Origin: an uncultured Chloroflexia bacterium
GTDB taxonomy: Bacteria > Chloroflexota > Limnocylindria > Limnocylindrales > CSP1-4
Assembly: GCA_963819655.1 (NCBI GenBank)
Contig: CAWFXA010000003.1
Span: 192,149 to 256,148, forward strand
Length of the DNA: 64,000 bases
Reading direction: 5' to 3'
Shown here: positions 1 through 61,089 of the stretch, in pieces
Position numbering within the stretch: the first letter of the stretch is position 1
Layout of the letters: each line of letters begins with the position of its first letter
Position numbers and translations under genes: made by a program
The notes under the pieces: model-generated
Databases searched by the model: none
What the model was told of the DNA's origin: nothing
Seen by the model: the letters and a program-made list of their open reading frames with translations, nothing else

Positions 1-1040
1 CCAGCACCCGCTGCAAAGCGCGGATCCCGGACTGCTCCAGCAACGCCTCTGACAATGCGGTCGCGCTCCGCACGCTCCCATCCGAGATCAGCCGGACCGC
101 CAGGCGCACCCCATACAACCCGAGCCGGGCCAGCAGGTCCTCGCGGATCTCCTCGCCCAGCGGGTTGCGTTCCGGGTCGCGGAAACGCTCGACCGACGTC
201 AACAAGTGATCCCGCGCGTCGGGCTCGAGCCGGACGAGCGCGCGCAGCCAGTCGAACTGTTCCTGGCGCAGCGTCGCGCCCGTCTCGGCGAGCAGGCCCG
301 CCACGGGGAGCACGCCCGACGCGAGCTCGCGAACGCGGGGATCGGTCGCATACCGTTCCGCGATCGACCGCGCCGAATCGAGCGCGTCCGGCCGTGCCGC
401 GCCGATCTCGTCGGCGCGTGACAGCACCACGACCGCGTTGACCGGCGACGCCTGCGCGATCGAGTGGTCCATGAACGCCTCGAGGAAGCGCGCGTCGCCA
501 TGATGCAGATGGCGCATCAGGTAGACGACTGCGTCAGCCTCGGCCGGGCTGTCGACTCCCGCATCGAGCAACGAGGCGGTCGTGCGCATCGACGCCCGTT
601 CGTCGGTCGAGCCGAGCCCCGGCGTATCGATCAGTGTCATCGACTCGAGCTTGGCCGATGGCCAGCCGACCTCGATGCGTTCGATCTCTTCGACTTCGCG
701 CGTTCCGAGGTCGATCAGCTAGCTCGCCGTCCCGCCGTGTGAACTCGAGATCGGCGTGGCCCTCGGGCCGCAGGTCGGCGGTCACCCGATACCCGAGCCC
801 GTGCCGGTACCACGTCACGATCCGGGTGCACTCCCCGGCGTCGGTGGCAGCCAGGCGCTCACCGACCAACGCGTTGAGCAGAGTCGACTTGCCGGCCTTC
901 ACGCGACCGGCGATCGCGACGCGGAGCGGTTCATCGAGGCGTCGAACGACGGCATCGACGGCCGCGGCCTGATCGGTCCCCCGGGCGACTCCCCGGGCCA
1001 ACTCGGCGATCGCGCGGACCTCGGTCGCGAGATCGGTCAT
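1..1040 (-). CDS. dynamin-like GTPase (bacterial DLP), 3' end outside window; apparent +1 frameshift near 716-724
   Basis: Minus-strand ORF from ATG at 1040 with G1 P-loop GRVKAGKST. After a frame break at gatcagCTAGctcg the other frame continues with LIDTPGLGS (G3) and VVVLSRADE (G4), reading to position 1 without a stop. The ATG lies 10 nt after the stop of the upstream Hsp70-like gene. Confidence 0.8.
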
Positions 1041-1050
1041 CCGCGTCCGC

Positions 1051-2854
1051 CTACGAAGGGAGGTCGAAACAGTTGCCGGTGTTCTGGATGACCGAGTGGT
1101 CGTGCCGCGCGACGAGGACGCACATCTGCGACGCGCCCGTGGGGCGATCGCTGACTTTGTAGCGGTCGAACGGCACCGGACCGTCGTACAGGATCCAGTT
1201 GCGGGAGTTGGCCGGCGTCCCGGCCTGGTCCGGCGGGATCGTGTCGAAGAAGAAGTGGATATGACGATCGAGAACGTCAGGCGAGAAGTTGAAGATGTCG
1301 TAGTCGACCAGATATGTGCCGCTGCTGACCGTGATGCCCGTGATCCGGGCCTGGCGACCGCCCGGGGTCGGGGTCGGCGTCGGCACGGTAGTCGGCGTCG
1401 GCGCGGCGGTCACGATCGGGCTCGGGGATGGCGTCACGGCGACGGACGGCGAAGCGGTGGGGATCGTCGCGACGGACGGTGCCGGGGACGGGGTGGCGGA
1501 GGCGCCGCCGAACATGCCGGACGAGGCCGCGACGGCGACCGCCCCGACCACTGCCATCCCGGCGATCGCCAGGCCTATGGGTAAGAGGTTCCGTGAGCCG
1601 CGGCCGCCGGGCGGCGGGGTCGGAGCGCCCGAGCCCCCCACGCCCGTTGCGGGCGTGTCCAGCGGGGGCGTCGGCGGGGACTCCTGCGGCGGCTCGGCGA
1701 GCGCGCCGGCAACGGCCGCGGTACCCGGGACCGCAACGGCCGCGACCGCAACTGCCGCGACCCCGCCGACCTCCGTCGGCTCCGCCGCGACCCGCTGCTG
1801 CTCGGCCACGAACGCGGCGCCAAGGGCCATCGTGTGCTTCGGGTGTGCATCGACCGCGACCGGCCGCCCGGTCGCCTCGCGCACCATCTCCTCGACGAGC
1901 GGGATCCGCGACGAGCCGCCGACGAGCAGGATCCGATCCACGTCCCCGAATCCAAAGCCGGCGCTGCGGGTCGCCCGGCCGAGTGCCTCGATCGTCTCGC
2001 GGATCCGGGGACGGATCATGTCCTCGAACTCCGCGCGCGTCAGGCGCATCTCGGTCTGCAGGCCAGGCAGGACGATCGGGATCGTCGCGTCGGTGTCCGA
2101 CGACAGGGCCTCCTTGGCGCGACGACACTCGTCGCGGAGCCGGGCGATGGCGGCCATCGTCGCCGGGCTGGTTCGCATCGATCTGGACGCCCTGTGCGGT
2201 GGCGTGCTCGATCGCCCGCCGGAACAGCGCCTCATCGAAGTCGATGCCGCCGAGCCGCTCCAGCCCCTCCGGTTGACCAAGGAGCTCGAAACCCTCGTCG
2301 GTCTTGCGCAGGATCGTGGCGTCGAACGTCCCGCCACCGAAGTCGTAGACCGCCACGACCGAGCCGGACGGCACCCGCTCCTGGCGCGCGTAGTCGAGGG
2401 CGGCCGCCTCGGGCTCCGCCAGCAGCGAGACCTGGCCGATGTCGGCCTGTCGGACGGCCTGCTGGAGCAGGTCGAGCTTGTACGGCCCGTAGCTGGCCGG
2501 ATGGCACAGGGCGATCGCCGCGGGCGGCTCCCCGAACTGCTGCGTGACCCGTGCGACGATCGAGCGCAGGAGGTGGGCGAGCAACGCCTCGGCTCCGTAC
2601 GGGGTGCCGCCGAGGATGATCGGGGTCGGGTCGCCCAGGCGCCGCTTGAACTCGCGGCCCGTGCGCGTCGGTTCGGCGAGGGCTCGCCGCTCCGCGGCTT
2701 CGCCGACGAGGACCTCGCCGTCGGCACGCAGGAGCACGATCGACGGAATCGTCGCGGCGCGCTCGCCGAGTTGGAAGATCTCCAGTCGATCGCCGCGCGC
2801 GACCGCGGCCGCGGAGTACGTGGTCCCGAGGTCGATCCCGAGCGAGTAGGCCAT
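1051..2854 (-). CDS. Hsp70-family ATPase (NBD only) fused to TM helix, Pro/Thr/Ser-rich linker and ~100-aa C-terminal extracytoplasmic domain; frame break near 2161-2170
   Basis: N-terminus MAYSLGIDLGTTYSAAAV ... DFGGGTFDATIL (Hsp70 phosphate-1 and connect-1 motifs) from ATG at 2854, preceded by an AAGGGA RBS. The second frame carries LRDECRRAKEALSS ... ILLVGGSSRIPLVEEMV (Hsp70 NBD C-lobe). This is followed by the hydrophobic helix LLPIGLAIAGMAVVGAVAVAA, a PT-rich stretch and a terminal domain ending CFDLPS. No Hsp70 substrate-binding domain is present. A single extra C in the cagCCCggcg run splits the two ORFs. Confidence 0.75.
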
Positions 2855-3013
2855 CAGTCCCTTCGATCGCTGGCAGGGCTCCCGAGTCTAGCGTGCGGGG
2901 CGCCGCGTGGGACGACCGATGAGACGTCGCGGCCGTCGTCGCGCGGCGCACGGGACACGTTCAGCGTGACGCCGGACGGTACACTCGCGGGCCGGAAGGA
3001 GGGACACACGCCG

Positions 3014-4818
3014 ATGCCGGCTGGGGTCATGGTCGCGCCCGCGACGGAGCAGCTCGATGCTGTCGTCGGCGACGTCCGCTCGATCGCTCGAAACCTCGAT
3101 CGGGACGACCTTGCCGACCGGCTCGACGACATCCGGCGTCGGGCCGCGCGGACGGACACCGTGGTCTGTGTGGTCGGCGAATTCAAGAAGGGCAAGAGCG
3201 CCCTCATCAACGCGCTGCTCGGCAGTGCGGTGTGCCCCGTCGACGACGATCTCGCGACGGCTGCCGTCACGGTCGTCCGCTACGGCGAGACGCCGAGCGC
3301 CACTAGTCCACCGCCGCGAGGGTGGCGAGTCGGTCGTCGAGCAGATCGAACCGACCGCCGTGCCCGACTGGGCGCAGGAGCCGGTCGGTCGTGAGCGTCG
3401 ACCCCAGGTCGACCTCGTCGAGGTGCGCATCCCGAATCCGCTTCTCGAGGGCGGTCTCACGCTCGTCGACACACCGGGTGTCGGTGGCCTGAACGCCGGG
3501 CACGCCGCAGCGACGCTGGCCTTCCTCCCATCGGCCGATGCGCTCGTGTTCGTGACCGATGCGTCGGCTGAACTGTCGGGTCCGGAGCTGGAGTTCCTGG
3601 CCAGCGCCAGGGGCGCAGGCCCGCCGGTGCTCGTCGCCGTCACCAAGATCGACATCTACCCGGCGTGGCGTCGCATCATCGACATCGATACCGGCCATCT
3701 GCAGGCGATCGGTTTCGCCGAACGGCCCTTCGGGCTGAGCGCGGCGCTTCGTGCCCGGGCCGATGAGCGGGACGACGAGAGCGGCTACGGGGCATTCTCC
3801 GAGGCTCTTCGTGGCGACGTCGTCGAGCGCGCCCGCGTGGCGAGCCTGGGCGCGGCGGTCGGCGACCTGCGCTGGGTCCTCGGGCAGCTGCGGGAGCCCC
3901 TCGTCGCCGAGCGAACAGCACTCGAACACCCGGAGCAGGCTGCCGCGATCGCCGCGGACCTCGCGGCCGTGCGCGAGCGGCTTGCGGCGTTGCGCCGAGC
4001 GGACGCCGCGTGGTCGACCCGGCTCGACGATGAGTTCGGCACCGTGCGCACGCGCGTCGCGTTCGGTTTCCAGCGCGACATGCGGACGATCCTGCGTGAC
4101 GCGCAGGCCGAGATCGAGGGCACGGATCCGTCCGGGACGTGGCCGGAACTGAGCGCAAGGATCCAGGATCACATCGCGACTGCTGTCCGGGCGGCGTTCC
4201 GTGGCGCGACGACCGGCGCAGCCGATGTCCAGGCCACCATCGCTGACCTCCTGGCCGACGAGGAGCGCGGGTCCACCGACGCCGCGCCCTCGATCACGTT
4301 CGACGTCGGCGAGTTCTGGCGCGGTGACCCGGAGTTCGAGGGTCGGACGAAGTCGCGTCTGGGAGCCGGCTACGGCGTGGTGACCGGCGCCAAGGCCGGC
4401 GTCGAGCTGCTCGGTCTCGTCGGCACGCTGCTCGGTGCGGCGATCGTCGGGCCAGCCGTGCTCGGCGTGGCTGCGCTGTACGGCGGCAAGGAGGTCCTCG
4501 ACGAGCGGCGCCGTCGTCTCACCGACCGCCGCCAGCAGGCGCGGAGCTTCCTCGCCGACCTCGTCGAGGAGATCGCCTTCCAGGTCGAGGGACGGCTGAC
4601 CACGGTCCTCGACGAGATGCAGCGCCAGATGCGGGCACGCTTCACCGACCGGATCGGTGAGCTGCATCGGACCGTCGGGGCGAGTGCCACCGCGCTGGAG
4701 CGTGCAGCGAAACGCGAAGTCGCGACCGCAACGCGCGCGCCAGGAGGAAGTCGATGCGACCCTCGACGAGATCGACGCGCTCCACGAGCGGGCGCGCGGG
4801 TTGCGGCCGGTGGTCTGA
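3014..4818 (+). CDS. dynamin-like GTPase (second DLP, with hydrophobic membrane-paddle region); frame breaks near 3300-3308 and 4731-4742
   Basis: ATG at 3014 with an AGGAGGG RBS 11 nt upstream. G1 VVGEFKKGKSALINALLG, G3 LTLVDTPGVGG, G4 VAVTKIDIY. Hydrophobic hairpin GVELLGLVGTLLGAAIVGPAVLGVAALYGG. Three frames are needed: 3014-~3305, ~3305-~4738, then ~4738-4818 ending ...QEEVDATLDEIDALHERARGLRPVV*. Confidence 0.8.
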
Positions 4819-4869
4819 CCCGAGGCGCCCGACCCCGTCGAAGGCCGCTGCGTGTAGCATCCTCGGACG

Positions 4870-5800
4870 ATGACCGACCTACCCGTCGGACCGCGACGAC
4901 CGCCCGGCCGGCACGCGATCGATCGACGCGCTGACCGAGGAGTTCCGCAGCCGCGACTACATCACGGACCGCTCACTCGCGACCGCCGTGTTCCTTGCGT
5001 TGGAGCTCGGCCGCCCGCTGCTGCTCGAGGGAGAGGCCGGCGTCGGCAAGACGGAGCTCGCCAAGGTCCTCGCGGCGTCACTCGGTGCGCGCCTGATCCG
5101 GCTGCAGTGCTACGAAGGCTTGGACGTCAACACGGCCGTCTACGAATGGAACTACCCGCGCCAGATGCTGGAGATCCGGCTGCTCGAGGCGCGCGGCCAG
5201 GCCGAGCACGCCAGCGCCCACGACATCTTCGGGTCGGACTTCCTGATCCGCCGGCCGTTGCTGCAGGCGCTCGAGAGCGACGACGGCGTCGCGCCCGTCC
5301 TCCTGATCGACGAGATCGACCGGGCCGACGAGGAGTTCGAGGCGTACCTGCTCGAGATCCTGTCGGACTTCCAGGTCACGGTGCCGGAGATCGGCACGAT
5401 CCGTGCCGAGAAGCCGCCGCGCGTGATCCTGACGTCGAACCGGACGCGCGAGGTCCACGACGCGCTCAAGCGCCGCTGTCTCTACCACTGGATCGACTAT
5501 CCGACGGCCCAGAAGGAATACGAGATCGTGCTTGCGCGCGTTCCGGAGTCGCCGGAGCGCCTGGCGCGCGAGGTCGTCGGTTTCGTGCATCGACTGCGTG
5601 AGGCCGATCTGACCAAGGTCCCGGGCATCGCCGAGACGCTCGACTGGGCAGCCGCCTTGCTGTCGCTCGGCGCCCGTGAGCTCCGTCCCGACCTGGTCGA
5701 CGAGACGCTCGGTGTCGTCCTCAAGTACGAGGAGGACATCCGCCACGTGCGCGGCGAACAGGCTGCCCGGATGCTCTCGGAGATCGCCGCTCGGGGCTAG
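4870..5800 (+). CDS. MoxR-family AAA+ ATPase (CoxD-like chaperone); +1 frame break near 4915-4926
   Basis: Walker A LLLEGEAGVGKTELAKVLA, Walker B VLLIDEIDRADEE, sensor/arginine-finger region TSNRTREV...LKRRC. ATG at 4870 sits in a different frame from the ATPase body, and the N-terminal extension AIDALTEEFRSRDYITDRS continues upstream in the body frame. Confidence 0.8.
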
Positions 5801-5828
5801 CGACAGTAGCCAGGAGACAGAACGCCCG

Positions 5829-8006
5829 ATGACCTTCCCGGTCCAGGTCGGACCGTCGACGATCACGATCAACCGCGACGACCGCGTCCTCGTCTCCCAG
5901 CCCGACGCGAGGGTGCTCGGCGAGTCAGACGGCTTCTTCACGCGCGACACGCGTTTCATCTCGGGCTACGACATGTGGATCAACGGGCGACGGCCGATCC
6001 TCCTCGCGTCGGGGCCCATCCAGTTCTTCTCGTCGCGGTTCGAGTTCACGAACGAGGCGTCGGTCGATGCGGATGGCCCGATCGAACGCCAATCGCTCGC
6101 GCTGCGGATCGACCGGACCGTGGCGGATGCGGTGCACGAGGACATCGACCTCACGAACTATGCACGCCGACCCGTGCGACTGACGATCGAGGTCGCGATC
6201 CTGTCGGACTTCGCCGACATCTTCGACGTGAAGGCGGGGCGGATCCTCCGGCGTGGCGAGGTCAACTCGCGCTGGTTCCGCTCCCGCGGTGAGCTCCGCA
6301 CGACCTACGTGAACCGCGATTTCCGTCGGGACCTCGTCGTCGCGGTGGAGCGCGCCGGCTCGACCCCCCAGTTCGCCAACGGTCGCCTGGTCTTCGTCGC
6401 GAACATCCCTCCGAAAGGGACGTGGCACACCTGCCTGAAGTGGCTGCCGGTGACCGGCGCGCACCGCCGGCCCCTCACACTGGCGTGCAACGCTGTCGAT
6501 GCGCCGCTGCGCAAGATCGGTCGGACCACGCTGCCGAACGTCGCGATCCAGACGCCGAACCAGGTCGTCGATCGCGCCTGGGACCAGGCCGTGCGCGATC
6601 TCGAGTCGTTGCGTCTCGAGGACCCGACGTTCGAGCGGGGCGTGTTCATCCCGGCAGCCGGGGTGCCGTGGTTCGTGACGCTGTTCGGACGTGACTCGCT
6701 GATCGTGTCGATGCAGGGGATCTCCGGCTTCCCGGAGTTCGCGGCCGGCGCTTTGCGGCGCCTGTCGGGTTTGCAGGCCACGAGCGACGACCCCGAACGC
6801 GACATGGAGCCCGGCAAGATCCCCCATGAGATCCGGCACGGCGAGCTTGCCCAGCTCGGGATCCTGCCGTATCAGCCGTACTACGGGACGCACGACGCGA
6901 CCAGCCTCTTCGTGATCGTCCTGTCCTACCTCTATCACTGGACAGGCGACGCGAGCATCCTGCGCCGGTTCCTCCCGAATGCGGAAGCGGCGATGGCCTG
7001 GATCGACCGCTACGGGGATCGTGACAGCGACGGTTTCCAGGAGTACAAGACGCGGTCGTCGCACGGGTACTACAACCAGGGCTGGAAGGACGCGGGCGAC
7101 GCGATCGTCGAGGCGGATGGCACGTTGGCAGCGCTCCCGATCGCCACGTGCGAGCTGCAGGGCTACGTGTTCGACGCGAAGAACCGGATGGCGGACGTGT
7201 ACGAGGCGCTCGACCGGCCGAAGGACGCGCGCCGACTCCGCCGCCAGGCGCAGCGCCTCTACGAACGCGTGAACGAGACGCTCTGGTGGGAGGAGGAGGG
7301 CACGTACTACCTCGGGCTCAATGGCCGCAAGGAACCGATCCGGAGCGTCGCCTCGAACGCCGGTCATCTCCTCCAGTCGGGGATCGTCCCACCGGAGCGC
7401 GCCGGTCGCGTCGTGAAGCGCCTGATGGCCGACGACATGTGGTCTGGCTGGGGCGTCCGGACGCTGTCGTCCGCACACCCCGCGTACAACCCGTTCTCCT
7501 ATCAGACCGGCTCTGTGTGGCCACACGACAACGCGTCGATCGCCGGCGGGTTCCGCCGGTACGGCTACGCGGCCGAGGCGGCCCAGGTCGCCAAAGGCAT
7601 CTTCGATGCCGCGGAACGGCTGGTCGGTCTGCGGCTCCCCGAACTGTTCTCGGGCCTCCCGCGAGTGCCGGCCAGCTTTCCTGTGCCGTACCTCGGCGCG
7701 AACGTCCCGCAGGCATGGGCGGCCGGCTCGGTCTTCCGGTTCGTCGCGATCCTGTGCGGGCTGCACGCGACCGTCGATGCCGACGGGTCCAAGCTCTATG
7801 TCAACCCGGCACTCCCGGACTGGCTGCCCGAGATCACGATCCAGAACCTGCGGTTGGGGACCGGCTCGATGGCGATCCGTTTCGCCGACGGCGACGCCGA
7901 GGTGCTCTCGAACACGTCCGGCTATCGCGTCGTGCACGGACCCGCGCCCGGGCCATTCGGCAGTCGCGGCGCGGTCGTGGCAGAGTCACCGCATGCAGGC
8001 GCCTGA
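5829..8006 (+). CDS. amylo-alpha-1,6-glucosidase family protein (bacterial glycogen-debranching-enzyme-like, GDE_N_bact + GDE_C)
   Basis: 726-aa ORF starting MTFPVQVGPSTITINRDDRVLV after a GGAGA RBS. Conserved GDE_C region GVPWFVTLFGRDSLIVS ... YYNQGWKDAGDAIV ... GSVWPHDNASIA. Its stop overlaps the next gene start. Confidence 0.75.
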   Translation: MTFPVQVGPSTITINRDDRVLVSQPDARVLGESDGFFTRDTRFISGYDMWINGRRPILLASGPIQFFSSRFEFTNEASVDADGPIERQSLALRIDRTVADAVHEDIDLTNYARRPVRLTIEVAILSDFADIFDVKAGRILRRGEVNSRWFRSRGELRTTYVNRDFRRDLVVAVERAGSTPQFANGRLVFVANIPPKGTWHTCLKWLPVTGAHRRPLTLACNAVDAPLRKIGRTTLPNVAIQTPNQVVDRAWDQAVRDLESLRLEDPTFERGVFIPAAGVPWFVTLFGRDSLIVSMQGISGFPEFAAGALRRLSGLQATSDDPERDMEPGKIPHEIRHGELAQLGILPYQPYYGTHDATSLFVIVLSYLYHWTGDASILRRFLPNAEAAMAWIDRYGDRDSDGFQEYKTRSSHGYYNQGWKDAGDAIVEADGTLAALPIATCELQGYVFDAKNRMADVYEALDRPKDARRLRRQAQRLYERVNETLWWEEEGTYYLGLNGRKEPIRSVASNAGHLLQSGIVPPERAGRVVKRLMADDMWSGWGVRTLSSAHPAYNPFSYQTGSVWPHDNASIAGGFRRYGYAAEAAQVAKGIFDAAERLVGLRLPELFSGLPRVPASFPVPYLGANVPQAWAAGSVFRFVAILCGLHATVDADGSKLYVNPALPDWLPEITIQNLRLGTGSMAIRFADGDAEVLSNTSGYRVVHGPAPGPFGSRGAVVAESPHAGA

Positions 8007-9390
8007 CGATCCAGCTGTCGTCAAGGCCCCGTGGGGCCCCGAGGTCGATGGTCGACGCCTGCTGAACGAGGCGGTCGGCTTCGGACGCGCGCTGCGCACA
8101 GCCGGCCTCCACATCGACCTCGGTGCCGCGGTCGACTTCGCGCGGGCCCTGCCGCTTGTCGATATCGGCTCGCGCGAGCAGGTCCGAGCCGCCGGCGAGA
8201 CCGTGTTCGTCCGCCGACGCGACGACCGCGAGACGTACGACGTCGTCTTCGACCGCTGGTGGCGTGCCCGCGGTCGCCGTCCCGGCGACTTCCAGGCACC
8301 GGCGCTCCAGCGCCCGGACGGCACCGAGTCCGAGGGCGACGACCCGACCGGTGAGGCCGCGCCGATGCCGGGCGACGAGACGACCTCGACGCGCCCCGAC
8401 GAGTGGGGCGTGCCGATCCCCACGGCCGGTGACGACGATGACGAGGCGGGCGACGACATCGAGGGCGTCGTGGTCGCGCCCGACGCCTACTCGCGGGGCG
8501 AGATGCTGAAACACCGCGAGTTCGACCGGATGACGCCCGCCGAGCTGCGCGACGCGGAACGTCTGGTCGACGAGCTGGTCCCGCGGCTGGAGCAGCGCCG
8601 GACCCGTCGGTACGAGTTGCACTCGCACGGCCGCCGGCTCGCCCCGCGGGCCATGTTCCGCCGCAACCTGGGGACCGGCGGTCAGCTCATGTCGTGGGTC
8701 TGGCGCCGACCAGTGAAGGAGCCGCGCTCGCTGGTGGTGCTGTGCGACATCTCGGGCTCGATGGAGCGCCACTCCCGGTTGCTCCTCCGCTTCATCCAGG
8801 CGCTGTCCGCCTCGAGCGAGGTTCGCGCCGAGTCATTCGTGTTCGGGACGCGGCTGACGCGCGTGACGCGGCTGTTGCGCGACAAGGACCGCGATCGGGC
8901 CCTCGCGCGGGTCAGCGATGCGGTCAACGACTGGGCGGGCGGGACCCGCATCGGTGAGAGCTTCCGGATGTTCAACCAGAGATGGGCGCGCCGCTCGCTT
9001 CGCTCGAGCGGCGTGGTGATCGTCGTGTCCGACGGGTGGGACCGGGGCGATCCGAACCTCGTGGCGACCGAGACCGCGCGCCTCCGGCGGAACTGCCACA
9101 GGCTCGTGTGGCTGAACCCGCTGGCCGGCACGCCCGGCTACCAGCCACTGGCCGGCGGGATGCGTGCGGCGTTCCCGTACATCGACGACTTCCTGCCGGC
9201 CGGCACCGTCGCGTCGCTCGAGCGGCTCGGCGAGATCCTCGGCGGCGTCCGCTCCGCCGACACGCGACAGGGCGCCGAGGCAGCAGCCCACGCGTCACTC
9301 CCCGGTGTGACCGACCTGGCCGGTGTCGGGCCGCCGACCGTCGTCGGTGGCACGCCCACCGATCCCACCACAGCGAGGCCGATCCGATGA
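7993..9390 (+). CDS. VWA domain protein of the CoxE family
   Basis: N-terminus LLNEAVGFGRALRTAGLHIDLGAAVDFARAL, typical of CoxE. MIDAS-type motif VVLCDISGSMERHSR ... VVIVVSDGWDRGD. The stop forms an ATGA overlap with the XdhC-like gene. Confidence 0.75.
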   Translation: MQAPDDPAVVKAPWGPEVDGRRLLNEAVGFGRALRTAGLHIDLGAAVDFARALPLVDIGSREQVRAAGETVFVRRRDDRETYDVVFDRWWRARGRRPGDFQAPALQRPDGTESEGDDPTGEAAPMPGDETTSTRPDEWGVPIPTAGDDDDEAGDDIEGVVVAPDAYSRGEMLKHREFDRMTPAELRDAERLVDELVPRLEQRRTRRYELHSHGRRLAPRAMFRRNLGTGGQLMSWVWRRPVKEPRSLVVLCDISGSMERHSRLLLRFIQALSASSEVRAESFVFGTRLTRVTRLLRDKDRDRALARVSDAVNDWAGGTRIGESFRMFNQRWARRSLRSSGVVIVVSDGWDRGDPNLVATETARLRRNCHRLVWLNPLAGTPGYQPLAGGMRAAFPYIDDFLPAGTVASLERLGEILGGVRSADTRQGAEAAAHASLPGVTDLAGVGPPTVVGGTPTDPTTARPIR

Positions 9391-10541
9391 AGGAACTGCT
9401 CGAGACGTTATCTGGCTGGCAGGGCGAGGGCATCGATGCGGGCCGCGCGGTCGTCGTTCGCACATTCGGCTCGGCCCCTCGGCCGGAGGGCGCGTCGCTG
9501 CTGTATGCGTCGGACGGTCGCATCGCGGGGTCGGTGAGCGGCGGCTGTGTCGAGGGCGCAGCCGCAGAACAGATCGAGCATGCCCGTGTGACCGGCAACG
9601 CCCGCGTCATCCGCTACGGCATCAGCGACGAGCAGGCGTGGGATGTGGGGCTCGCCTGCGGGGGCACCATCGACGTCCTGGTCCAGCCCGCGGTGCCCAC
9701 CGCCGCTGTCGCGGCGGCCACTGCATCGCTCGGTGCAGGCGGCCACGGTGCCGCCGTCGTCACGCCGCTCCCCGCCGACTCCCCACCGGCCGAAGGCGGT
9801 CCGCACGAGCCGGGGGAGGGGGCGGCGCCCGAGTCGCCCCTGGTGGTCCATGAGGATGGCCGTCTTGAGGGCACGCTCGGCGATCCGGCCCTCGATGGAG
9901 CCCTGGTCGACGGCGCGCTCGACGCGTTGCGGCGCGGCCAGTCGCGCACGATGGAGCTCGGTGAACGATCGCTCTTCGTCGAAGTGTTCCCGGTCCGGCC
10001 ACGGCTCGTGGTGGTCGGCGCGGTCGAGGTGGCCCGCTCGCTGGTCCGGCTGGCGAAGGAGCTCGGGTTCGAGACCGTCGTCATCGACGGTCGGGCGTCG
10101 TTCGCGACCCCCGAGCGGTTCCCGGACGTCGACCGACTCGTCGTCGGCTGGCCCGACGAGGTCGCCGATGAGATCGGCCTCGGACCCAATGACGCCGTGG
10201 CCGTGCTGACCCACGATGTGAAGTTCGACGAACCGGCGATCGTGGAAGCGCTCAAGCGAGGTTGTCGCTATGTCGGGGCTGTCGGCTCGCGCAAGACCCA
10301 GGCGGATCGCCGGCAGCGTCTGCGCGATGCCGGCGTGAGCGACGAGGCGCTCGCCGAGCTGCGTGGTCCGGTCGGGCTCGACCTCGGCGGCCGGCAACCG
10401 GCCGAGACGGCGCTCGCGATCCTCGCCGAGGTGGTCGCAGAGCGCTACGGCGGGTCCGGGCGGCCGATGCGCGACCGTGCCGCCGAGGGACCCGCGGCGT
10501 CGCGGATGGCGATCGAGGGGACGCCGGTCACGGCCGGCTGA
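9387..10541 (+). CDS. XdhC/CoxI-family molybdoenzyme maturation factor (CoxF-like)
   Basis: XdhC_CoxI N-domain GRAVVVRTFGSAPRPEGASLLYASDGRIAGSVSGGCVEG followed by a Rossmann-like C-domain LVVVGAVEVARSLVRLAKELGFETVVIDGR. Confidence 0.8.
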   Translation: MKELLETLSGWQGEGIDAGRAVVVRTFGSAPRPEGASLLYASDGRIAGSVSGGCVEGAAAEQIEHARVTGNARVIRYGISDEQAWDVGLACGGTIDVLVQPAVPTAAVAAATASLGAGGHGAAVVTPLPADSPPAEGGPHEPGEGAAPESPLVVHEDGRLEGTLGDPALDGALVDGALDALRRGQSRTMELGERSLFVEVFPVRPRLVVVGAVEVARSLVRLAKELGFETVVIDGRASFATPERFPDVDRLVVGWPDEVADEIGLGPNDAVAVLTHDVKFDEPAIVEALKRGCRYVGAVGSRKTQADRRQRLRDAGVSDEALAELRGPVGLDLGGRQPAETALAILAEVVAERYGGSGRPMRDRAAEGPAASRMAIEGTPVTAG

Positions 10542-42993: not shown

Positions 42994-43893
42994 ACCCGGC
43001 CCGCCGCGTAGTCGCGCGCCGCCACGCGGCGCTGCCAGGCGGTGGTCAGCATCACGAGCCCGACGGCCGTGACGAAGATGATCGTGCCGATGACGTTGAC
43101 CTGGACCGGGATACCGCGGAGCTGCGACGCGTAGATGAACAGCGGGAACGTCTCGGTCTGGCCCGAGGTGAACGCCGTGATGACGTAATCGTCGATGGAC
43201 AGGCTGAAGGCGAGCAGCGCTGCGGCGATGACGCCCGGCAGGATCAGCGGGAAAGTGACCTTCCAGAACGTCGTCCATTCGTTCGCGCCCAGGTCCATCG
43301 CAGCCTCCTCCAGGTGACGCGGGAAGTTCGCTAGTCGCGCCTTCACGGTCACGACGACGAAGCTGATGTTGAACATGATGTGCGCGATCAGGACGGTCCG
43401 GATGTTGAGCGGGAACACGAGCCCCTCCGGGATCGGCAGCTGGACGGACGCGACGAACGTCGTGAGCAGTGATGCGCCGAGGACGATCTCGGGCGTCGAC
43501 ATCGGCAGGAAGATGAGCACGTTCGTCGCCGCCCGGCCGCGGAACGAGTAACGCGCCAGCGCCAGGCCGATCATCGTGCCGAGCGTCGTCGCGACGAGGG
43601 TCGACAGGAACGCGATGACTAGGCTGTTCCGCACGGCCTCCGCCAGACCGGGGCGCCCGAGCGGGTTGAGCCAGGCGTCGAGCGAGAACTCGCGCCAGTT
43701 CAGGTTCGAGCGGCCGGTCGGGATCGTTGAAGCTGAACAGGATCATGACCGCGACCGGCAGGATCAGGTAGGCCGTGACGCCGACCACGTAGATCGGCAG
43801 CAGCCACCGATCGATCAGGCGCCCGAGACGCGCGGCGGGCGCACGTCGCGTGGCGGTCACGGCGCTCGTCGTCGTGGTCGAGGTCGTGGCCAT
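42990..43893 (-). CDS. potC: spermidine/putrescine ABC transporter permease PotC-like; +1 frame break near 43715-43728
   Basis: N-terminus MATTSTTTTSAVTATRRAPAARLGRLIDRWLLPIYVVGVTAYLILPVAVMILFSFNDP in one frame. Body ...NLNWREFSLDAWLNP...AVRNSLVIAFLSTLVATTLGTMIGLALARY in the other. An extra base in a G/C run (ggtcGGGatcg) separates them. Confidence 0.8.
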
Positions 43894-44901
43894 CAGACCG
43901 CCGCTCCGGTCAGCTCCTCGGTCCCGATCAGCCGGGTGTAGAAGAACAGCCCGACCAGGATCGCGACCATCAGGACGAACGACAGCGCCGACGCGGTCGG
44001 GTAGTCGGTCACCTCGAGATAGCGGGCCTGGATGACGTTGCCGATCATCAGCGACTGGGGGTTGCCGAGCAGCTCGGCGTTGATGAAGTCACCGACGGCC
44101 GGGATGAACGTCAGCAGCGATCCCGCGAAGATCCCGGGTAGCGATAGCGGCAGGGTGACGCGGATGAACGCCTGGCCGATCAGGAACGTGCCGACGATGG
44201 CGCCGACGATGGCGCCGGGGATACCGATCGTCAGCGGCCCGTAGTCCATCACCGCCCCGACGACGAGACCGAGCACGCCGCCGATGACGCAGCCCGACGA
44301 CCGTGCCCTGCGGCCGCCACGGGCCTGCGTAGAGGTCCTCGGCGGCCTCGATGAGGCGCTTGTCGATCCGCTCGAGCGAGACGTAGAGCGGCAGCGTCAT
44401 GAACGGCAGGAAGTTGTACGTGATCCCCGCGATGACGGCCGCCGGCGTCGCTAGCAGCCGGAACTCCTCCGACAGCAACCCGAGATCCTTGAGCGGCCCG
44501 AGGAGCAGACCGTCGTCGGCCAGGATGATCTTCCAGGAGATCGTGCGCAGCAGAAAGCTCGTGAAGAAGGGCGCGATCACCAGGAACAACAGCAGGTTCT
44601 TGTAGGCGCCGCCGCGGAACGCGATGGCGTACGCGAGCGGGAAGCCCAGCGCGAACGCGAGGGCGGTCGCCAGCGCGCCGTACACGATCGATCGGGCGAG
44701 CCACGGCCAGTACTCGCTGATGGCCTCGGGATAGATGCCCCAGTTCCAGGTCTGCGAGAACCCGGCATCCAGGTTCCCCGTCCAGAGCGAGACGAGGAAC
44801 ATCTGGAACGCCGGGTACACGTAGAAAACGACGAGCCACAGCAGGCCCGGCAGGAGGAGCGCGTAGGGCGCGATCGCGCGGAGGTGCAGCGCGCGACGCA
44901 T
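43893..44901 (-). CDS. potB: spermidine/putrescine ABC transporter permease PotB-like; +1 frame break near 44281-44295
   Basis: N-terminal part through LIEAAEDLYAGPWRPQGTVVG in one frame. C-terminal part VIGGVLGLVVGAVMDY...FIRVTLPLSLPGIFAGSLL in the other. Confidence 0.75.
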
Positions 44902-44907
44902 CGGCGA

Positions 44908-48808: not shown

Positions 48809-51019
48809 ATGCGTTGTCCGTCGTGCGGGGTCGCGGCAGGGGACGACGCAAGGTACTGCGCGCAATGCGGGAATCCGATCGAGCGATCGGACGCCCCGAG
48901 CGGTGACGGCGATGGCACGGCAGGGCGGACCACACCAGGGCCGCCGGGCGCGCTGAGCCCGCTATCGACGACGTCGGGAGACCGACGGATCGTCACCGCC
49001 CTCTTCGCCGACCTGGTCGACTACGTGCGCATGCTCGCCGAGCACGATCCCGAAGTGGTGCGAGCGCGGGTGACGGTGGCGCTCGGCACGATGGCAGCGG
49101 CCGTCGAGCGCTTCGAGGGGACGCGCGAGAAATTCATCGGCGATGCGCTCTTCGCCGTCTTCGGCTGGCCGCGGGCACACGACGACGACGCGGTCCGTGC
49201 CTCGCTGGCCGCCCTCGCCATCCGCACCGGGCTGCAGGACCTCGGCATGGGCGGTGAGCCGATGGACGTCCGGATCGGTCTCGCGACCGGTGAGGTCGTG
49301 GCCGCCGCGGCGGCGCCGCTGGACGGTGACCTGCGTCTGACCGGCGAGGCCATCACGACGGCGGCGCGGATCCAGTCGATGGCCCGACCGGGCGAGATCC
49401 TGCTCGACGATGCCACCAGACAGGCAGCGCGGGGCAGGCTGGCCACCGACACGCGTGGAGAGGTCGTCCTCCGCGGCCAGTCGACCGCCATCGAGCTGCA
49501 CGCGCTCCGCGGCGAGGCGGGCATGAGCGCGTGGCTCCCGTACCGCGCCGCGTCGCCGGGTCCGCTCGTCGGGCGCGAGGATGAGCTTGCGACGATCGCG
49601 GCTGCGCTCGAACGAACGCGGCGGACCGGCCACGGTGTCGCGCTCGTCATCGAGGGCGAGGCCGGGATGGGCAAGTCGCGCCTCCTGACGGCCGTCGAGG
49701 CCGCCGCCCGCGACGTGGGCTTTGCGTGGACGTGGACCGAGAACGTGTCCTACGGCCGCGGCGAGCCGTACCGCTGGGCTCGCCTGTTCGCCCAGGTCAT
49801 CGCCGACGAGCACGGCGTCGATTCGGGCTCGCTCGTGCGCCGTTTCATCTTCACGGACGACCTGTCGCCCGAGACCGTCAGGCGCTTCGGCGGGGCGATC
49901 GCCGCGATCGCCCGCGATGCCGCGTTCTCCGGCTGGGAGGCGGAGTCCGCCGACGTGCCCGCGGACCCGGCCGAGGTGAACGCCACGTTGGCCGAGGTCG
50001 CCGCGCGCTACGTCGATCGGCTGTTCGAATCGACAGGGCCCCGTGTGATCGTGATCGACGACCTGCACTGGCTCGATCCATCGAGCGTCGGGCTGGTCGA
50101 CCTCGTCGTGGAGAGAACCGTGGACCACCCGGTCCTTATCCTCGCGGCGACCCGCCCCGGGCCACTCCCCGGCTGGGCGACACGCGACTCGACCACCCGA
50201 GTGCGGCTCAACGGCCTGGCCGAGCCCGATACGGCCCGGCTGGCCACCCTCGTCGCTCGGGCGGCGGTCGATGCTGAAGGAGTCCGCAGCATCCACGAAC
50301 GGACCGGCGGGAACCCGCTCTTCGTCGGCGAGACCGTGCGCGCCTTCCTCCAGGACGGCACGCTTCAATGGCGGGACGGCCGGCTGGCATTGATCGGGAG
50401 CGGCGGGTCGCGTATCCCCGTGACCCTGCGGGCCGTGCTGGGCGCGCGTATCGATGCGATGCCATCTGCCGCTCGCGAAGCGCTCGGCGTCGCGTCGATC
50501 ATCGGGATCACGTTTCGGCCATCCCTCGTCGAGGAGTTGCTCGACCATCCGCTCGAGCAGGGAGCGTTCGATCTGCTCGCCGAGAGCGCGTTGATCGCGC
50601 CGATCGATGACGACCATTGGCGATTCGCTCACGCGCTCATCCACGACGCCGCGTACGCGGGGCTCCTGGCCAGTCGGCGACGCACGCTCCACACTCGACT
50701 GGCCGATCGGCTCGAACGTCGCGGGGGGGTGCCGGCTACGGGTCAGATCGCTGCCCACCGCGTGGCAGCGGGCGACGCACCGCGAGCGATTCCGCTGCTG
50801 CGCGAAGCGGGCGAGAGCGCGCTCGCGTTGGGTGCCGTCGCGGAGGCGGCGGCCTATTGGCAGCAGGCGGCCGACCTCGCAGCGAGCGACGACCCGGACG
50901 GCGCCGCGCGGGATCGGCTGCGGGCGAGCGAGGCCGTTGAAGCATCGAGCTTGCTCCGCGACGCGACAGCGGCGTCCTCGGCTACTGCCCCATCGGCCGC
51001 GGGTCCCGCCCCGATCTAG
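48809..51019 (+). CDS. zinc-ribbon / class III adenylyl-guanylyl cyclase / AAA ATPase multidomain signalling protein
   Basis: N-terminal CPSCG..CAQCG zinc ribbon. Cyclase domain RIVTALFADLVDYV ... FIGDALFAVFG. AAA P-loop LVIEGEAGMGKSRLL. Helical repeat-like C-terminus. Confidence 0.75.
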   Translation: MRCPSCGVAAGDDARYCAQCGNPIERSDAPSGDGDGTAGRTTPGPPGALSPLSTTSGDRRIVTALFADLVDYVRMLAEHDPEVVRARVTVALGTMAAAVERFEGTREKFIGDALFAVFGWPRAHDDDAVRASLAALAIRTGLQDLGMGGEPMDVRIGLATGEVVAAAAAPLDGDLRLTGEAITTAARIQSMARPGEILLDDATRQAARGRLATDTRGEVVLRGQSTAIELHALRGEAGMSAWLPYRAASPGPLVGREDELATIAAALERTRRTGHGVALVIEGEAGMGKSRLLTAVEAAARDVGFAWTWTENVSYGRGEPYRWARLFAQVIADEHGVDSGSLVRRFIFTDDLSPETVRRFGGAIAAIARDAAFSGWEAESADVPADPAEVNATLAEVAARYVDRLFESTGPRVIVIDDLHWLDPSSVGLVDLVVERTVDHPVLILAATRPGPLPGWATRDSTTRVRLNGLAEPDTARLATLVARAAVDAEGVRSIHERTGGNPLFVGETVRAFLQDGTLQWRDGRLALIGSGGSRIPVTLRAVLGARIDAMPSAAREALGVASIIGITFRPSLVEELLDHPLEQGAFDLLAESALIAPIDDDHWRFAHALIHDAAYAGLLASRRRTLHTRLADRLERRGGVPATGQIAAHRVAAGDAPRAIPLLREAGESALALGAVAEAAAYWQQAADLAASDDPDGAARDRLRASEAVEASSLLRDATAASSATAPSAAGPAPI

Positions 51020-59721: not shown

Positions 59722-60975
59722 TCAGCCGGTCCGAGACGTCGGCGGTCGATGCTTCCGCAGGAATGTTGGCAGTTCGAGGTTCTCGTCCTCGATCGGCGCA
59801 CGCCGCTCCACCGCGGGTTGTTCGTCCTTGACGCCCGGACGCGCTGACGGCACCTGAGCGTGCGGCGTGACGCGCTCGGCCTGCCTGCGGAGACGTGCGG
59901 TCAGCGTCGCCGGCGACACCGACTCCGCAGCACGATGGCCGTCGAGGCCCGTGGCGATCAGCGTGATCATGACCTCGCCCTCGGCGACGTCGCCGACGCT
60001 CGCCCCGAAGATCACGTTGGCGCGGCTGTCGGCCGTCGACCTGATCTCGTCGGCCGCCCGCCGGACCTCGCGCAACTTCAAGTCCGCGGGCCCGGACACA
60101 TGGAACAGGATGCCGCGGGCGCCCTGGATGCTGGCCTCGAGGAGCGGGCTCGAGATGGCCTGCCGGGCGGCGTCCACCGCGCGGTCCTCGCCGGTCCCGC
60201 GACCCAGGCCGATCAGCGCCGGCCCCGCGTCGCGCATGATCGCGCGCACATCGGCGAAGTCGAGGTTGATGAGGCCGGGCGCCGTGAGCAGATCGACGAT
60301 GCCCTGGACGGCACGGAGCAGCACGCCATCGACGACGCTGAATGCCTCGAGGGCGGATGCGTCCTCCTGGACGACCTCGCTGACCCGGTCGTTGGAGACC
60401 GTGATCAGGGCGTCCACCTCGGACGCCAGCCGCGCGGACGCCTCGTCGGCGATCTCGCGACGCTGTGCGCCCTCGAAGTCGAAAGGCTTGGTGACGACCG
60501 CGATCGTCAGCGCGCCCTGCTCTCGCGCCTTGGCCGCCACGATCGGGGCGGCGCCCGAGCCGGTGCCCCCACCGAGGCCTGCCGTCACGAACACGAGATC
60601 GGCCGACGCGAGCGCCCTGCCGATCTTCTCGGCATCCTCCTCGGCCGACTTCCGGCCGACGTCCGGATCGCCGCCCGAGCCGAGCCCGTGGGTGATCGCG
60701 TCGCCGATCCTGATGCGAGTCGGCGCGAGGGACTGGCGGAGAGCCTGGGCGTCGGTGTTGCACACGACGAATTCGACGCCGGGGATCCCGGCATCGACCA
60801 TCCGGTCGACGGCGTTGCCGCCGCCCCCGCCGACGCCCACGACGAGGATGCCGCGCGTCTCCGGGTGGCGTCCCCGTCGGAACAAGCCGGGGATCGAGAC
60901 TGCGACGCGGGCGACCACAAGTCCGGCGAGGACGAGGATGACGAGCTGGACGAGGGTCTGGGCCGACTGGTCCAC
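59722..60975 (-). CDS. ftsZ: FtsZ-family tubulin-like GTPase, paralogue located outside a dcw cluster, with predicted N-terminal TM helix if the GTG at 60975 is used
   Basis: Tubulin signature VGVGGGGGNAVDRMV, T7 loop NLDFADVRAIM, C-terminal conserved peptide ENLELPTFLRK. N-terminal 27 residues TLVQLVILVLAGLVVARVAVSIPGLF are hydrophobic. TAGACT hexamer 6 nt upstream of GTG suggests a leaderless transcript. An internal in-frame TTG (LFRRGRHPETRGILVVG) would give a canonical soluble N-terminus. Confidence 0.85.
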   Translation of the reverse strand: MDQSAQTLVQLVILVLAGLVVARVAVSIPGLFRRGRHPETRGILVVGVGGGGGNAVDRMVDAGIPGVEFVVCNTDAQALRQSLAPTRIRIGDAITHGLGSGGDPDVGRKSAEEDAEKIGRALASADLVFVTAGLGGGTGSGAAPIVAAKAREQGALTIAVVTKPFDFEGAQRREIADEASARLASEVDALITVSNDRVSEVVQEDASALEAFSVVDGVLLRAVQGIVDLLTAPGLINLDFADVRAIMRDAGPALIGLGRGTGEDRAVDAARQAISSPLLEASIQGARGILFHVSGPADLKLREVRRAADEIRSTADSRANVIFGASVGDVAEGEVMITLIATGLDGHRAAESVSPATLTARLRRQAERVTPHAQVPSARPGVKDEQPAVERRAPIEDENLELPTFLRKHRPPTSRTG

Positions 60976-61089
60976 GTCCCGAGTCTAGCCACACATCGCA
61001 AGTCCCAAGCACGACAGACGTCCTGCATCGCATGGTCCCTTCGTCGCATTCGATGCCGTCCGGACCCGGCAAGAGCCCGTGCTACACTC

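Follow-up and report, generated by a model that had tools for sequence, protein, structure and literature searches.

The 64,000-nt stretch of contig CAWFXA010000003.1 analysed here (the window) opens with a three-gene module in which an Hsp70-like gene lies between two genes for dynamin-like proteins (DLPs), GTPases that we term DLP-A and DLP-B. The Hsp70-like gene occupies positions 1051–2854 of the minus strand, where a first-pass annotation made from the sequence alone had placed it, and runs from the ATG at 2854 to the TAG at 1053–1051, a span of 1804 nt (mod 3 = 1). Its stop codon is separated by 10 nt (GCGGACGCGG, 1041–1050, minus strand) from the ATG, at 1040, of DLP-A, the shorter, IniC-like GTPase, of whose ~489 codons the first ~346 lie in the window (1–1040, minus strand) before the gene continues beyond the window edge; both the gap and the truncated gene agree with the earlier description. 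Because the gap measures only 10 nt, the two genes are presumably co-transcribed and their translation is probably coupled, and similarly tight spacing is found at the related loci L001, L002, L084 and L086. The IniA-like DLP-B is transcribed divergently from the plus strand (3014–4818; ATG 3014, TGA 4816–4818; 1805 nt, mod 3 = 2) and encodes 600 aa once corrected. Indeed, not one of the three is contained in a single open reading frame (ORF), and +1 frame corrections are required in each, as judged by three-frame translation; the first-pass annotation had crossed these frameshifts silently and read the genes as uninterrupted.

The divergent intergenic region between the Hsp70-like gene and DLP-B (2855–3013) measures 159 nt, against the 160 bp first reported, and includes one extra base at ~2920 that is private to the window. 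It holds two conserved boxes of the TAnnnT type, namely TAGACT on the minus strand (plus-strand AGTCTA, 2885–2890), ~30 nt upstream of the Hsp70-like ATG, and GTACACTC at 2979–2986 upstream of the DLP-B ATG, which is also preceded by an AGGAGG Shine-Dalgarno sequence within 2994–3002. Both blocks are kept in the window, L001, L002, L003, L005 and L083, and L013 retains the DLP-B-side block (GAGTGTAC) only. Since a consensus scan of positions 1–5200 returned no sigma-70 match (and no terminator), the region is to be regarded as a putative promoter.

As the earlier annotation had proposed, the Hsp70-like protein contains a complete Hsp70-type nucleotide-binding domain (NBD) and no substrate-binding domain (SBD). 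The NBD spans residues 1–352 (1798–2854, minus strand; Pfam HSP70, E = 5e-55), and Pfam and NCBIfam profiles match this part of the protein alone, aligning residues ~2–352 with positions 2–370 of the DnaK profile. Alignment with canonical DnaKs of the control loci shows that the domain retains GIDLGTT, the equivalent of the catalytic lysine K70 (FKRRLG), EPxAAAL, YDFGGGTFD, LGGIDFD and LVGGSSRIP; these nucleotide-binding motifs are invariant across 93 homologues, and the NBD is predicted to bind ATP and to be catalytically competent. A full-length model of P0001, an intact protein with 94% identity, superposes on solved Hsp70 NBDs (TM 0.70–0.76, Foldseek), and the fold as modelled is complete. 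With canonical DnaK, HscA and HscC the protein thus has the NBD fold and all nucleotide-binding motifs in common at ~30% identity, whereas it lacks ~21 aa of subdomain IB, the interdomain linker (DVLLLDV type; DVLLLDVTPLSLGIE) and everything that follows it in canonical DnaK, that is SBD and lid, and is anchored in the membrane. In the place of linker and SBD stands a disordered, Ala/Pro/Gly-rich cytoplasmic segment (residues 353–420; 1594–1797, minus strand), with pLDDT below 50 from residue 372 up to the transmembrane (TM) helix in the P0001 model.

The single TM helix (residues 423–441, LLPIGLAIAGMAVVGAVAV; 1531–1587, minus strand; hydropathy 2.38) is modelled at residues 425–439 of P0001 and was found in every family member examined. 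A basic patch (GGRGSRN) precedes it and, following the positive-inside rule, the predicted topology is N-in, C-out, with the NBD in the cytoplasm and the C-terminal domain (CTD) outside. Helix and CTD are joined by a Pro/Thr/Ser/Ala-rich extracytoplasmic linker (residues 448–497; 1363–1512, minus strand; P 28%, T 22%, A 16%, S 14%), which also has pLDDT below 50 in the full-length model. Here the first-pass annotation was right about one TM helix and a Pro/Thr/Ser-rich linker and wrong about the length of the latter, which is ~50 and not ~70 residues. The CTD itself (1054–1362, minus strand) comprises 103 aa, in good agreement with the ~100 aa first given, and ends in NTGNCFDLPS.

The possibility that the gene is a fragment of a canonical DnaK with its SBD in another frame was considered and rejected, in line with the earlier reading: intact full-length homologues of the corrected protein, 590–700 aa long and 60–94% identical, have no SBD and follow the same layout of NBD, linker, TM helix, linker and CTD. 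It is likewise highly improbable that the protein is a conventional Hsp70 chaperone paralogue which folds or disassembles DLP oligomers via substrate binding. Intact ATPase motifs would suit such a role, and the cyanobacterial literature takes neighbouring DnaK-domain genes as chaperones (PMC5827413), but the protein has neither SBD nor DnaK interdomain linker, is membrane-anchored with an ectodomain, and has no DnaJ/J-domain or GrpE Pfam family beside it in the annotated neighbourhoods of the window's relatives and of the further loci, although such partners may be encoded in other parts of the genome.

Both GTPases match Pfam Dynamin_N (DLP-B, E = 1e-23; DLP-A, E = 3e-12), so that the dynamin-like pair described earlier stands, and they can be assigned more precisely to the IniA/IniC type. 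DLP-B aligns with M. smegmatis IniA (PDB 6J72) over residues 17–596 against 7–595 (phmmer, E = 1.1e-67) and, judged by this alignment, is a full-length IniA homologue with G domain, neck and trunk. The GTPase motifs GEFKKGKS, DTPG and TKID are present in its sequence, its intact orthologues measure 600–623 aa, and the hydrophobic segment that had already been noticed maps to residues 460–491 (4392–4487, plus strand; hydropathy 2.18), where it is predicted to interact with the membrane. DLP-A has no hydrophobic segment, its maximal 19-mer hydropathy being 1.37. By its size (474–500 aa in the intact orthologues of L001, L002 and L084–L086) and its pairing, the DLP-A-type gene always being accompanied by an IniA-like gene at the family loci, DLP-A appears to be like IniC.

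The named closest homologues of the Hsp70-like protein belong to Candidatus Limnocylindria/Limnocylindrales or Chloroflexi, and a genome scan is concordant; on this sequence evidence the host is a Limnocylindria-type member of the Chloroflexota and not of the Actinomycetota, in which the first-pass annotation had set it. Anaerolineae-type Chloroflexota, Acidimicrobiia and many cultured members of the Actinomycetota have more distant relatives of the NBD (44–66% identity). DLPs accompany the family-type NBD at 17 of 32 loci (both DLPs in the flanks at 14, one DLP on each of three short contigs) as compared to 3 of 50 control loci with a DnaK-like NBD (Fisher p = 1.9e-6), and the linkage recurs at all five further loci looked up. 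The linkage suspected from the window alone is hence found again in related genomes and, as judged from gene content, is conserved from Chloroflexota to Actinomycetota. The three control loci with DLPs carry 2–3 atypical Hsp70-NBD paralogues, with Sel1/TPR-like tails at the Clostridia loci L040 and L054 and none at the Kutzneria locus L057. At L040 and L054, both from metagenome-assembled genomes (MAGs), a DLP pair stands beside two or three SBD-less Hsp70-NBD proteins with Sel1/TPR-like repeats instead of TM helix and ectodomain, which suggests that DLP/Hsp70-NBD partnerships occur in Firmicutes too.

Gene order at these loci is variable. In Limnocylindria, the Hsp70-like gene is followed by DLP-A and diverges from DLP-B, while in Anaerolineae, Acidimicrobiia and Pseudonocardia it diverges from a run of DLP-B and DLP-A, with an IniB-like gene in some cases preceding DLP-B. 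At L012, L032, L087 and L088 the Hsp70-like gene and the DLPs all lie on one strand, at L017 and L024 they are convergent, and the Limnocylindria triad alone is found in three different flanking contexts. Because the adjacency persists despite these changes in gene order and flanks, we regard it as good support for a functional connection of the Hsp70-like protein with the DLPs. In other Limnocylindria-type genomes, the flanks of the triad include LiaF-like, LemA and MacB/FtsX genes and two-component systems in L085, and an HtrA-type protease and Usp in L084, all of envelope-stress type.

Some Actinomycetota loci further resemble the mycobacterial ini locus. In Pseudonocardia, ORFs with an IniB N-terminal domain (NF038175, 46 and 53.5 bits, cut-off 40) lie directly upstream of the IniA-like gene, and in Amycolatopsis and Actinomycetospora the loci carry an AAA_16+GerE regulator of 857–895 aa, the domain type of IniR. 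The unknown ORFs that flank the DLPs in the latter two genera gave no IniB_NTERM match, neither an IniB-domain gene nor an AAA_16+GerE regulator is present in the first 12 kb of the window, and no other partner gene proved to be universally conserved.

The CTD has no Pfam model. Modelled from 97 aligned sequences and compared with PDB structures, it is predicted to form a small β-sandwich of FN3/Ig-like type (pLDDT 94, pTM 0.87), and two Cys and several His/Asp residues (HxHFFFDT, DHSV) are nearly invariant. Whereas a CTD profile run against a word-indexed database gave short fragments only, an exhaustive search of representatives with the CTD of the window itself yielded 542 clusters, with proteins of 84–1303 aa and many with 2–5 tandem copies, and it is from this search that fusions to kinase, FHA and CHAT domains emerged. 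Among 20 of the 542 clusters subjected to Pfam, nine have an N-terminal Hanks kinase domain (one with an additional PnrA/Bmp domain, one with a DsbA/thioredoxin domain), and one each has FHA, CHAT, TIR+FGE-sulfatase, FGE-sulfatase, subtilase or the Hsp70 NBD. In 5 of 5 inspected sequences (P0206, P0207, P0225, P0232 and P0299), a basic patch and then one hydrophobic helix precede the CTD copies. Since the CTD thus follows a TM helix in kinase, FHA and CHAT proteins, it is a reusable ectodomain of single-pass signalling proteins, in which the Hsp70 NBD, to judge from domain order, takes the position that a kinase holds elsewhere. The domain also occurs as an apparent stand-alone lipoprotein (P0178, 156 aa, N-terminus ...LALAGC), and its fusions to TIR+FGE-sulfatase, CHAT or subtilase (P0323, P0299 and P0286) place it in conflict-type and protease proteins besides kinases.

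In all NBD relatives the layout of NBD, long linker and one TM helix is kept and the external part varies. It comprises the CTD in Chloroflexota and Acidimicrobiia, and otherwise three PASTA repeats, β-propellers of YncE/lactonase type or PD40, DUF1349 or low-complexity tails; in the paralogues from Actinomycetota the place of the CTD is taken by PASTA, β-propeller or DUF1349 modules. PknB- and PknD-like receptor kinases have PASTA repeats and β-propellers, respectively, as their external parts. Hence, receptor Hanks kinases and the Hsp70NBD-TM proteins have in common both their layout (a cytoplasmic enzyme, a disordered linker, one TM helix and a modular ectodomain) and their ectodomain families (CTD, PASTA and YncE/PD40 propellers), yet they differ in the cytoplasmic module, which in the Hsp70-like proteins is an actin-fold Hsp70 ATPase with no Pkinase match. 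In an Ilumatobacteraceae MAG (L011:9836–11125, plus strand), a 429-aa paralogue consisting of the Hsp70 NBD only is encoded directly downstream of the TM-anchored one, followed by a 432-aa ORF without Pfam match.

That the CTD is also found with TIR and CHAT domains would fit a different role of the triad, namely an anti-phage module related to the dynamin-based Eleos system (LeoA/LeoBC), with the Hsp70-like protein as a surface sensor. The PADLOC profiles of LeoA and LeoBC both match both DLPs (E 1e-7 to 3e-17), the surroundings of the module vary from genome to genome, and B. subtilis DynA is reported to contribute to phage defence (PMC12998192). These profile matches are, however, weak and partial, and none falls on the Hsp70-like protein; the full-length match of DLP-B is IniA, the flanks are of housekeeping or envelope-stress types and not defence islands, and the module appears to be vertically conserved within Limnocylindria. 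An anti-phage role of the triad is therefore quite improbable.

In the ORF table, the Hsp70-like gene is split into 1277–2854 and 1051–2727. Three-frame translation and blastn against the close relatives L001, L002 and L083 (93–94% identity) trace the shifts to single extra bases private to the window, at ~720 in DLP-A, at ~2167 in the Hsp70-like gene (placed at ~2167–2170, inside the NBD) and at ~3305 and ~4727 in DLP-B; besides the non-coding one at ~2920, a further one lies at ~4886, in codon ~6 of the adjacent MoxR gene. At ~720 (CAGC[T]AGCTC) and at ~3305 (CCAC[T]AGTCC), the extra base creates CTAG. The three module genes are intact in L001, L002, L084, L085 and L086. Substitutions relative to L002 are distributed over codon positions 1/2/3 as 19/14/74, 14/7/80 and 15/13/55 in the three shifted genes, with the same third-position bias as in the intact neighbours (21/13/111 in the glycogen-debranching-like gene, GDE, and 13/4/81 in the VWA gene). 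Moreover, L001 and L083, which have long-read-style contig names, contain private 1-nt insertions of their own at other sites that break genes, and the JGI assembly L002 contains none. As the shifts are private to the window, the relatives intact, the substitutions biased to third positions and other long-read-style assemblies similarly affected, the frameshifts are probably errors of the assembly consensus and not biology. In L001 (ENA contig_34366) and L083 (ENA contig_12075), such insertions break up MoxR, GDE, DLP-A, DLP-B and the Hsp70-like gene, the pieces of which are called as separate genes; P0129 and other short 'hypothetical proteins' of its kind are pieces of this sort.

If the frameshifts were real, the DLP/Hsp70 module would have been inactivated very recently in this strain, together with the beginning of the neighbouring MoxR gene, leaving a cluster of young pseudogenes. 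Every one of the three module genes carries a lesion, most other genes of the window have long intact ORFs, and the single-base insertions are clustered, with six of about seven private ones in the first 4.9 kb of 64 kb and none in the next ~5.5 kb relative to L002. Such clustering weighs against our interpretation, being unexpected for uniformly spread errors of assembly, and allows for genuine decay of this region; a low-coverage stretch, a contig end or strain heterogeneity are possible sources of it. Yet all lesions are +1 insertions, with no deletions or nonsense substitutions among them, one is non-coding and one affects an unrelated neighbour gene, the codon-position pattern of the shifted genes is indistinguishable from that of intact neighbours, insertions of the same kind are private to other long-read-style relatives at other sites, and an additional probable shift is found 40 kb away. 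We thus consider recent inactivation unlikely and retain consensus error as the explanation. Programmed frameshifting was rejected, since the sites of the shifts lack conservation, the genes of relatives stay in frame there and extra bases occur in non-coding DNA too.

The distant shift, at ~44290, was found in a census by coding-segment analysis (a raw frame plot of GC content at third codon positions was too noisy) and is the only clear frameshift candidate beyond the first 4.9 kb of the window. This probable +1 shift divides an ABC-transporter permease (43893–44907, minus strand), of which only the piece in the second frame matches Pfam BPD_transp_1, positions 96–177. Two other candidates, FtsZ at 59.7–61.0 kb and the gene ending at 51019, proved intact; FtsZ (59722–60984, minus strand) lies in one frame and shows both the usual motif of GGGTG(N)A type and, at the C-terminus, the peptide LELPTFLRK. 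Next to DLP-B, the MoxR-type AAA ATPase (4870–5800, plus strand; ATG 4870) loses its frame after ~5 codons through the extra base at ~4886, and for this reason the ORF finder gives a truncated ORF of 270 aa from the GTG at 4988, as compared to 309–341 aa in the orthologues. The MoxR gene opens a run of MoxR, glycogen-debranching-like (GDE_N_bis), VWA_CoxE and XdhC genes (4870–10541, plus strand) that is syntenic with L001, L002 and L086, where it extends into MoCF_biosynth and subunits of a molybdoenzyme of xanthine/CO-dehydrogenase type. This run seems unrelated to the DLP module, which is found without it in L084 and L085.

Bacterial DLPs are usually encoded as operon pairs (PMC6104087). The statement of the first-pass annotation that a partner of the Hsp70 type is not part of any described DLP system proved too strong: Jilly et al. 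2018 described a 'chaperone clade' of cyanobacterial bacterial DLPs (BDLPs) with a DnaK-domain gene downstream, which they read as a link to chaperones (PMC5827413), and Boot et al. 2017 mention a dnaK-like gene that adjoins iniR at the ini locus of M. smegmatis (PMC5760070). Neither study analysed the DnaK-like protein (PMC5827413, PMC5760070), and the papers on IniA/IniC function found in the literature search and reviews on bacterial Hsp70s (PMC8215388, PMC11019930) make no mention of an Hsp70-like partner. As far as our literature searches reach, the Hsp70/DLP linkage has been noted before, the protein is uncharacterised and its architecture undescribed.

Of particular relevance is the neighbourhood of iniR in mycobacteria. 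MSMEG_0691 is the orthologue of Rv0339c (IniR) (bioRxiv 10.1101/2024.03.06.583649), and its neighbour MSMEG_0692, orthologous to Rv0312, is described as a conserved hypothetical, Pro/Thr-rich protein with one TM helix and ATP binding (PMC11898655). It was among 25 proteins exclusive to FhaA crosslinked complexes, within an interactome enriched for envelope biogenesis (PMC11898655). The description of MSMEG_0692 is an exact fit to the Hsp70NBD-TM family. The mycobacterial system, in which iniB-iniA-iniC are induced by cell-wall inhibitors under an IniR-type regulator, serves in membrane fission, isoniazid/ethambutol tolerance and vesicle release. The window and the mycobacterial iniR-iniBAC locus have in common a long DLP with a membrane segment, DLP-B being an IniA homologue, and a shorter DLP of ~490 aa, and related Actinomycetota loci place the Hsp70-like gene beside genes with the IniB N-terminal domain and IniR-type regulators. 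The window differs in that no iniB or IniR-type regulator is nearby, in its gene order, which is not iniB-iniA-iniC, and in its host, a member of the Chloroflexota without mycolate envelope; moreover, no study has dealt with the Hsp70-like component as a member of the ini system.

Two other systems invite comparison. In the cyanobacterial 'chaperone clade', as in the window, a DnaK-domain gene lies next to a bacterial DLP and a functional link has been proposed, but that clade was described as a category of gene neighbourhood with a classical chaperone, and loss of the SBD, a TM anchor or an ectodomain were not reported (PMC5827413). The DLP1/DLP2 operon of Campylobacter jejuni likewise combines paired DLPs with a third, non-GTPase gene, which is HcpA-like (Liu, Noel & Low 2018, PMC6104087). 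The Sel1/TPR-like Hsp70-NBD proteins beside the DLP pairs of L040 and L054 recall this HcpA-like gene. The type of accessory protein differs in C. jejuni, however, the HcpA-like protein having no sequence relationship to the Hsp70-like protein.

Altogether, the Hsp70-like protein is probably a functional partner of the DLP pair. We lean, with a little better than even confidence, towards a three-gene membrane remodelling unit composed of the IniA-like DLP-B, the IniC-like DLP-A and the N-in/C-out Hsp70-like protein as envelope sensor or anchor. How such a unit might work can be sketched only tentatively, and the specific sensing and recruitment mechanism is one in which we place less than even confidence. 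The Hsp70-like protein would be the envelope-facing part, whose FN3-like ectodomain would read or bind something in the cell envelope. Engagement or clustering of the ectodomain could position the NBD, which in turn may, in a manner that depends on nucleotide, recruit, position or gate the two DLPs at the membrane. The most likely target of the NBD would be DLP-A, which has no anchor of its own and is presumably co-transcribed with the Hsp70-like gene. Fission or repair of the membrane when the envelope is under stress would result, in line with what has been described for IniA/IniC, and would be local. The first-pass annotation had suggested an ATP-driven regulator or anchor, a putative role that gains support from the receptor-like modularity of the family.

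Several observations weigh against a dedicated partnership. There is no direct evidence for a physical or functional interaction of the Hsp70-like protein with a DLP, no DLP is found in the flanks at 15 of the 32 family loci, several of which are short contigs, and in genomes with several paralogues only one stands beside DLPs (L018 versus L020, L023 versus L030), indicating that the family extends beyond accessories dedicated to DLPs. The link to mycobacteria is itself uncertain: MSMEG_0692/Rv0312 may belong to the Hsp70NBD-TM family, an assignment that follows from description and position and is not confirmed by sequence, and a homologue search with an Actinomycetota NBD profile returned no Mycobacterium within the top 120. 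In M. tuberculosis, the putative orthologue Rv0312 is, going by gene numbers, not adjacent to iniBAC (Rv0341–0343).

With these points in mind, Hsp70NBD-TM proteins could instead be general envelope receptors of the FhaA/Ser/Thr-kinase network, which would come to lie near ini-type operons through a shared envelope-stress regulon (e.g. IniR-type) and would not act on DLPs directly. Their ectodomains are indeed those of receptor kinases, many paralogues have no DLP neighbours, and MSMEG_0692/Rv0312 was recovered with FhaA, not with IniA/IniC; the presumed distance of Rv0312 from iniBAC in M. tuberculosis also fits. On the other hand, a shared regulon does not readily account for an adjacency that outlasts repeated rearrangement of gene order with different flanks in three or more classes, for the 10 nt to DLP-A in Limnocylindria, which imply stoichiometric co-expression, or for the same-strand runs of Hsp70-like gene and DLPs at L012, L032 and L087. 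Receptors without any direct action on the DLPs are therefore unlikely in our view, and we maintain that the Hsp70-like protein probably acts with the DLP pair.

In summary, our analysis names the DLPs of this module as IniA/IniC-type, extends their linkage to an Hsp70-like gene over Chloroflexota and Actinomycetota, and places the partner in a receptor-like family that swaps ectodomains. The occurrence of the same ectodomains on kinase, FHA, CHAT and Hsp70 NBD proteins argues that an SBD-less Hsp70 ATPase can be a signalling or output module and not a chaperone. Going further, one may speculate, and we hold this to be doubtful as a whole, that a large and unrecognised family of single-pass bacterial receptors uses Hsp70-type ATPase domains as its cytoplasmic output module and has ectodomains interchangeable with those of receptor Ser/Thr kinases, that one conserved task of these receptors is to link envelope state to membrane remodelling by IniA/IniC, and that Rv0312 and MSMEG_0692 belong to them, which would add a missing component to the isoniazid-induced ini system. 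In current annotations, thousands of such genes go by no other name than 'Hsp70 family protein', 'DnaK' or 'actin-like ATPase'. Targeting and activation of IniA/IniC-type dynamins are poorly understood and matter for mycobacterial drug tolerance and vesicle release, and a conserved, membrane-anchored, ATP-dependent third component with a sensor-like ectodomain would be a concrete candidate for this missing step. M. smegmatis, in which the gene apparently lies beside iniR, offers a direct test ground.

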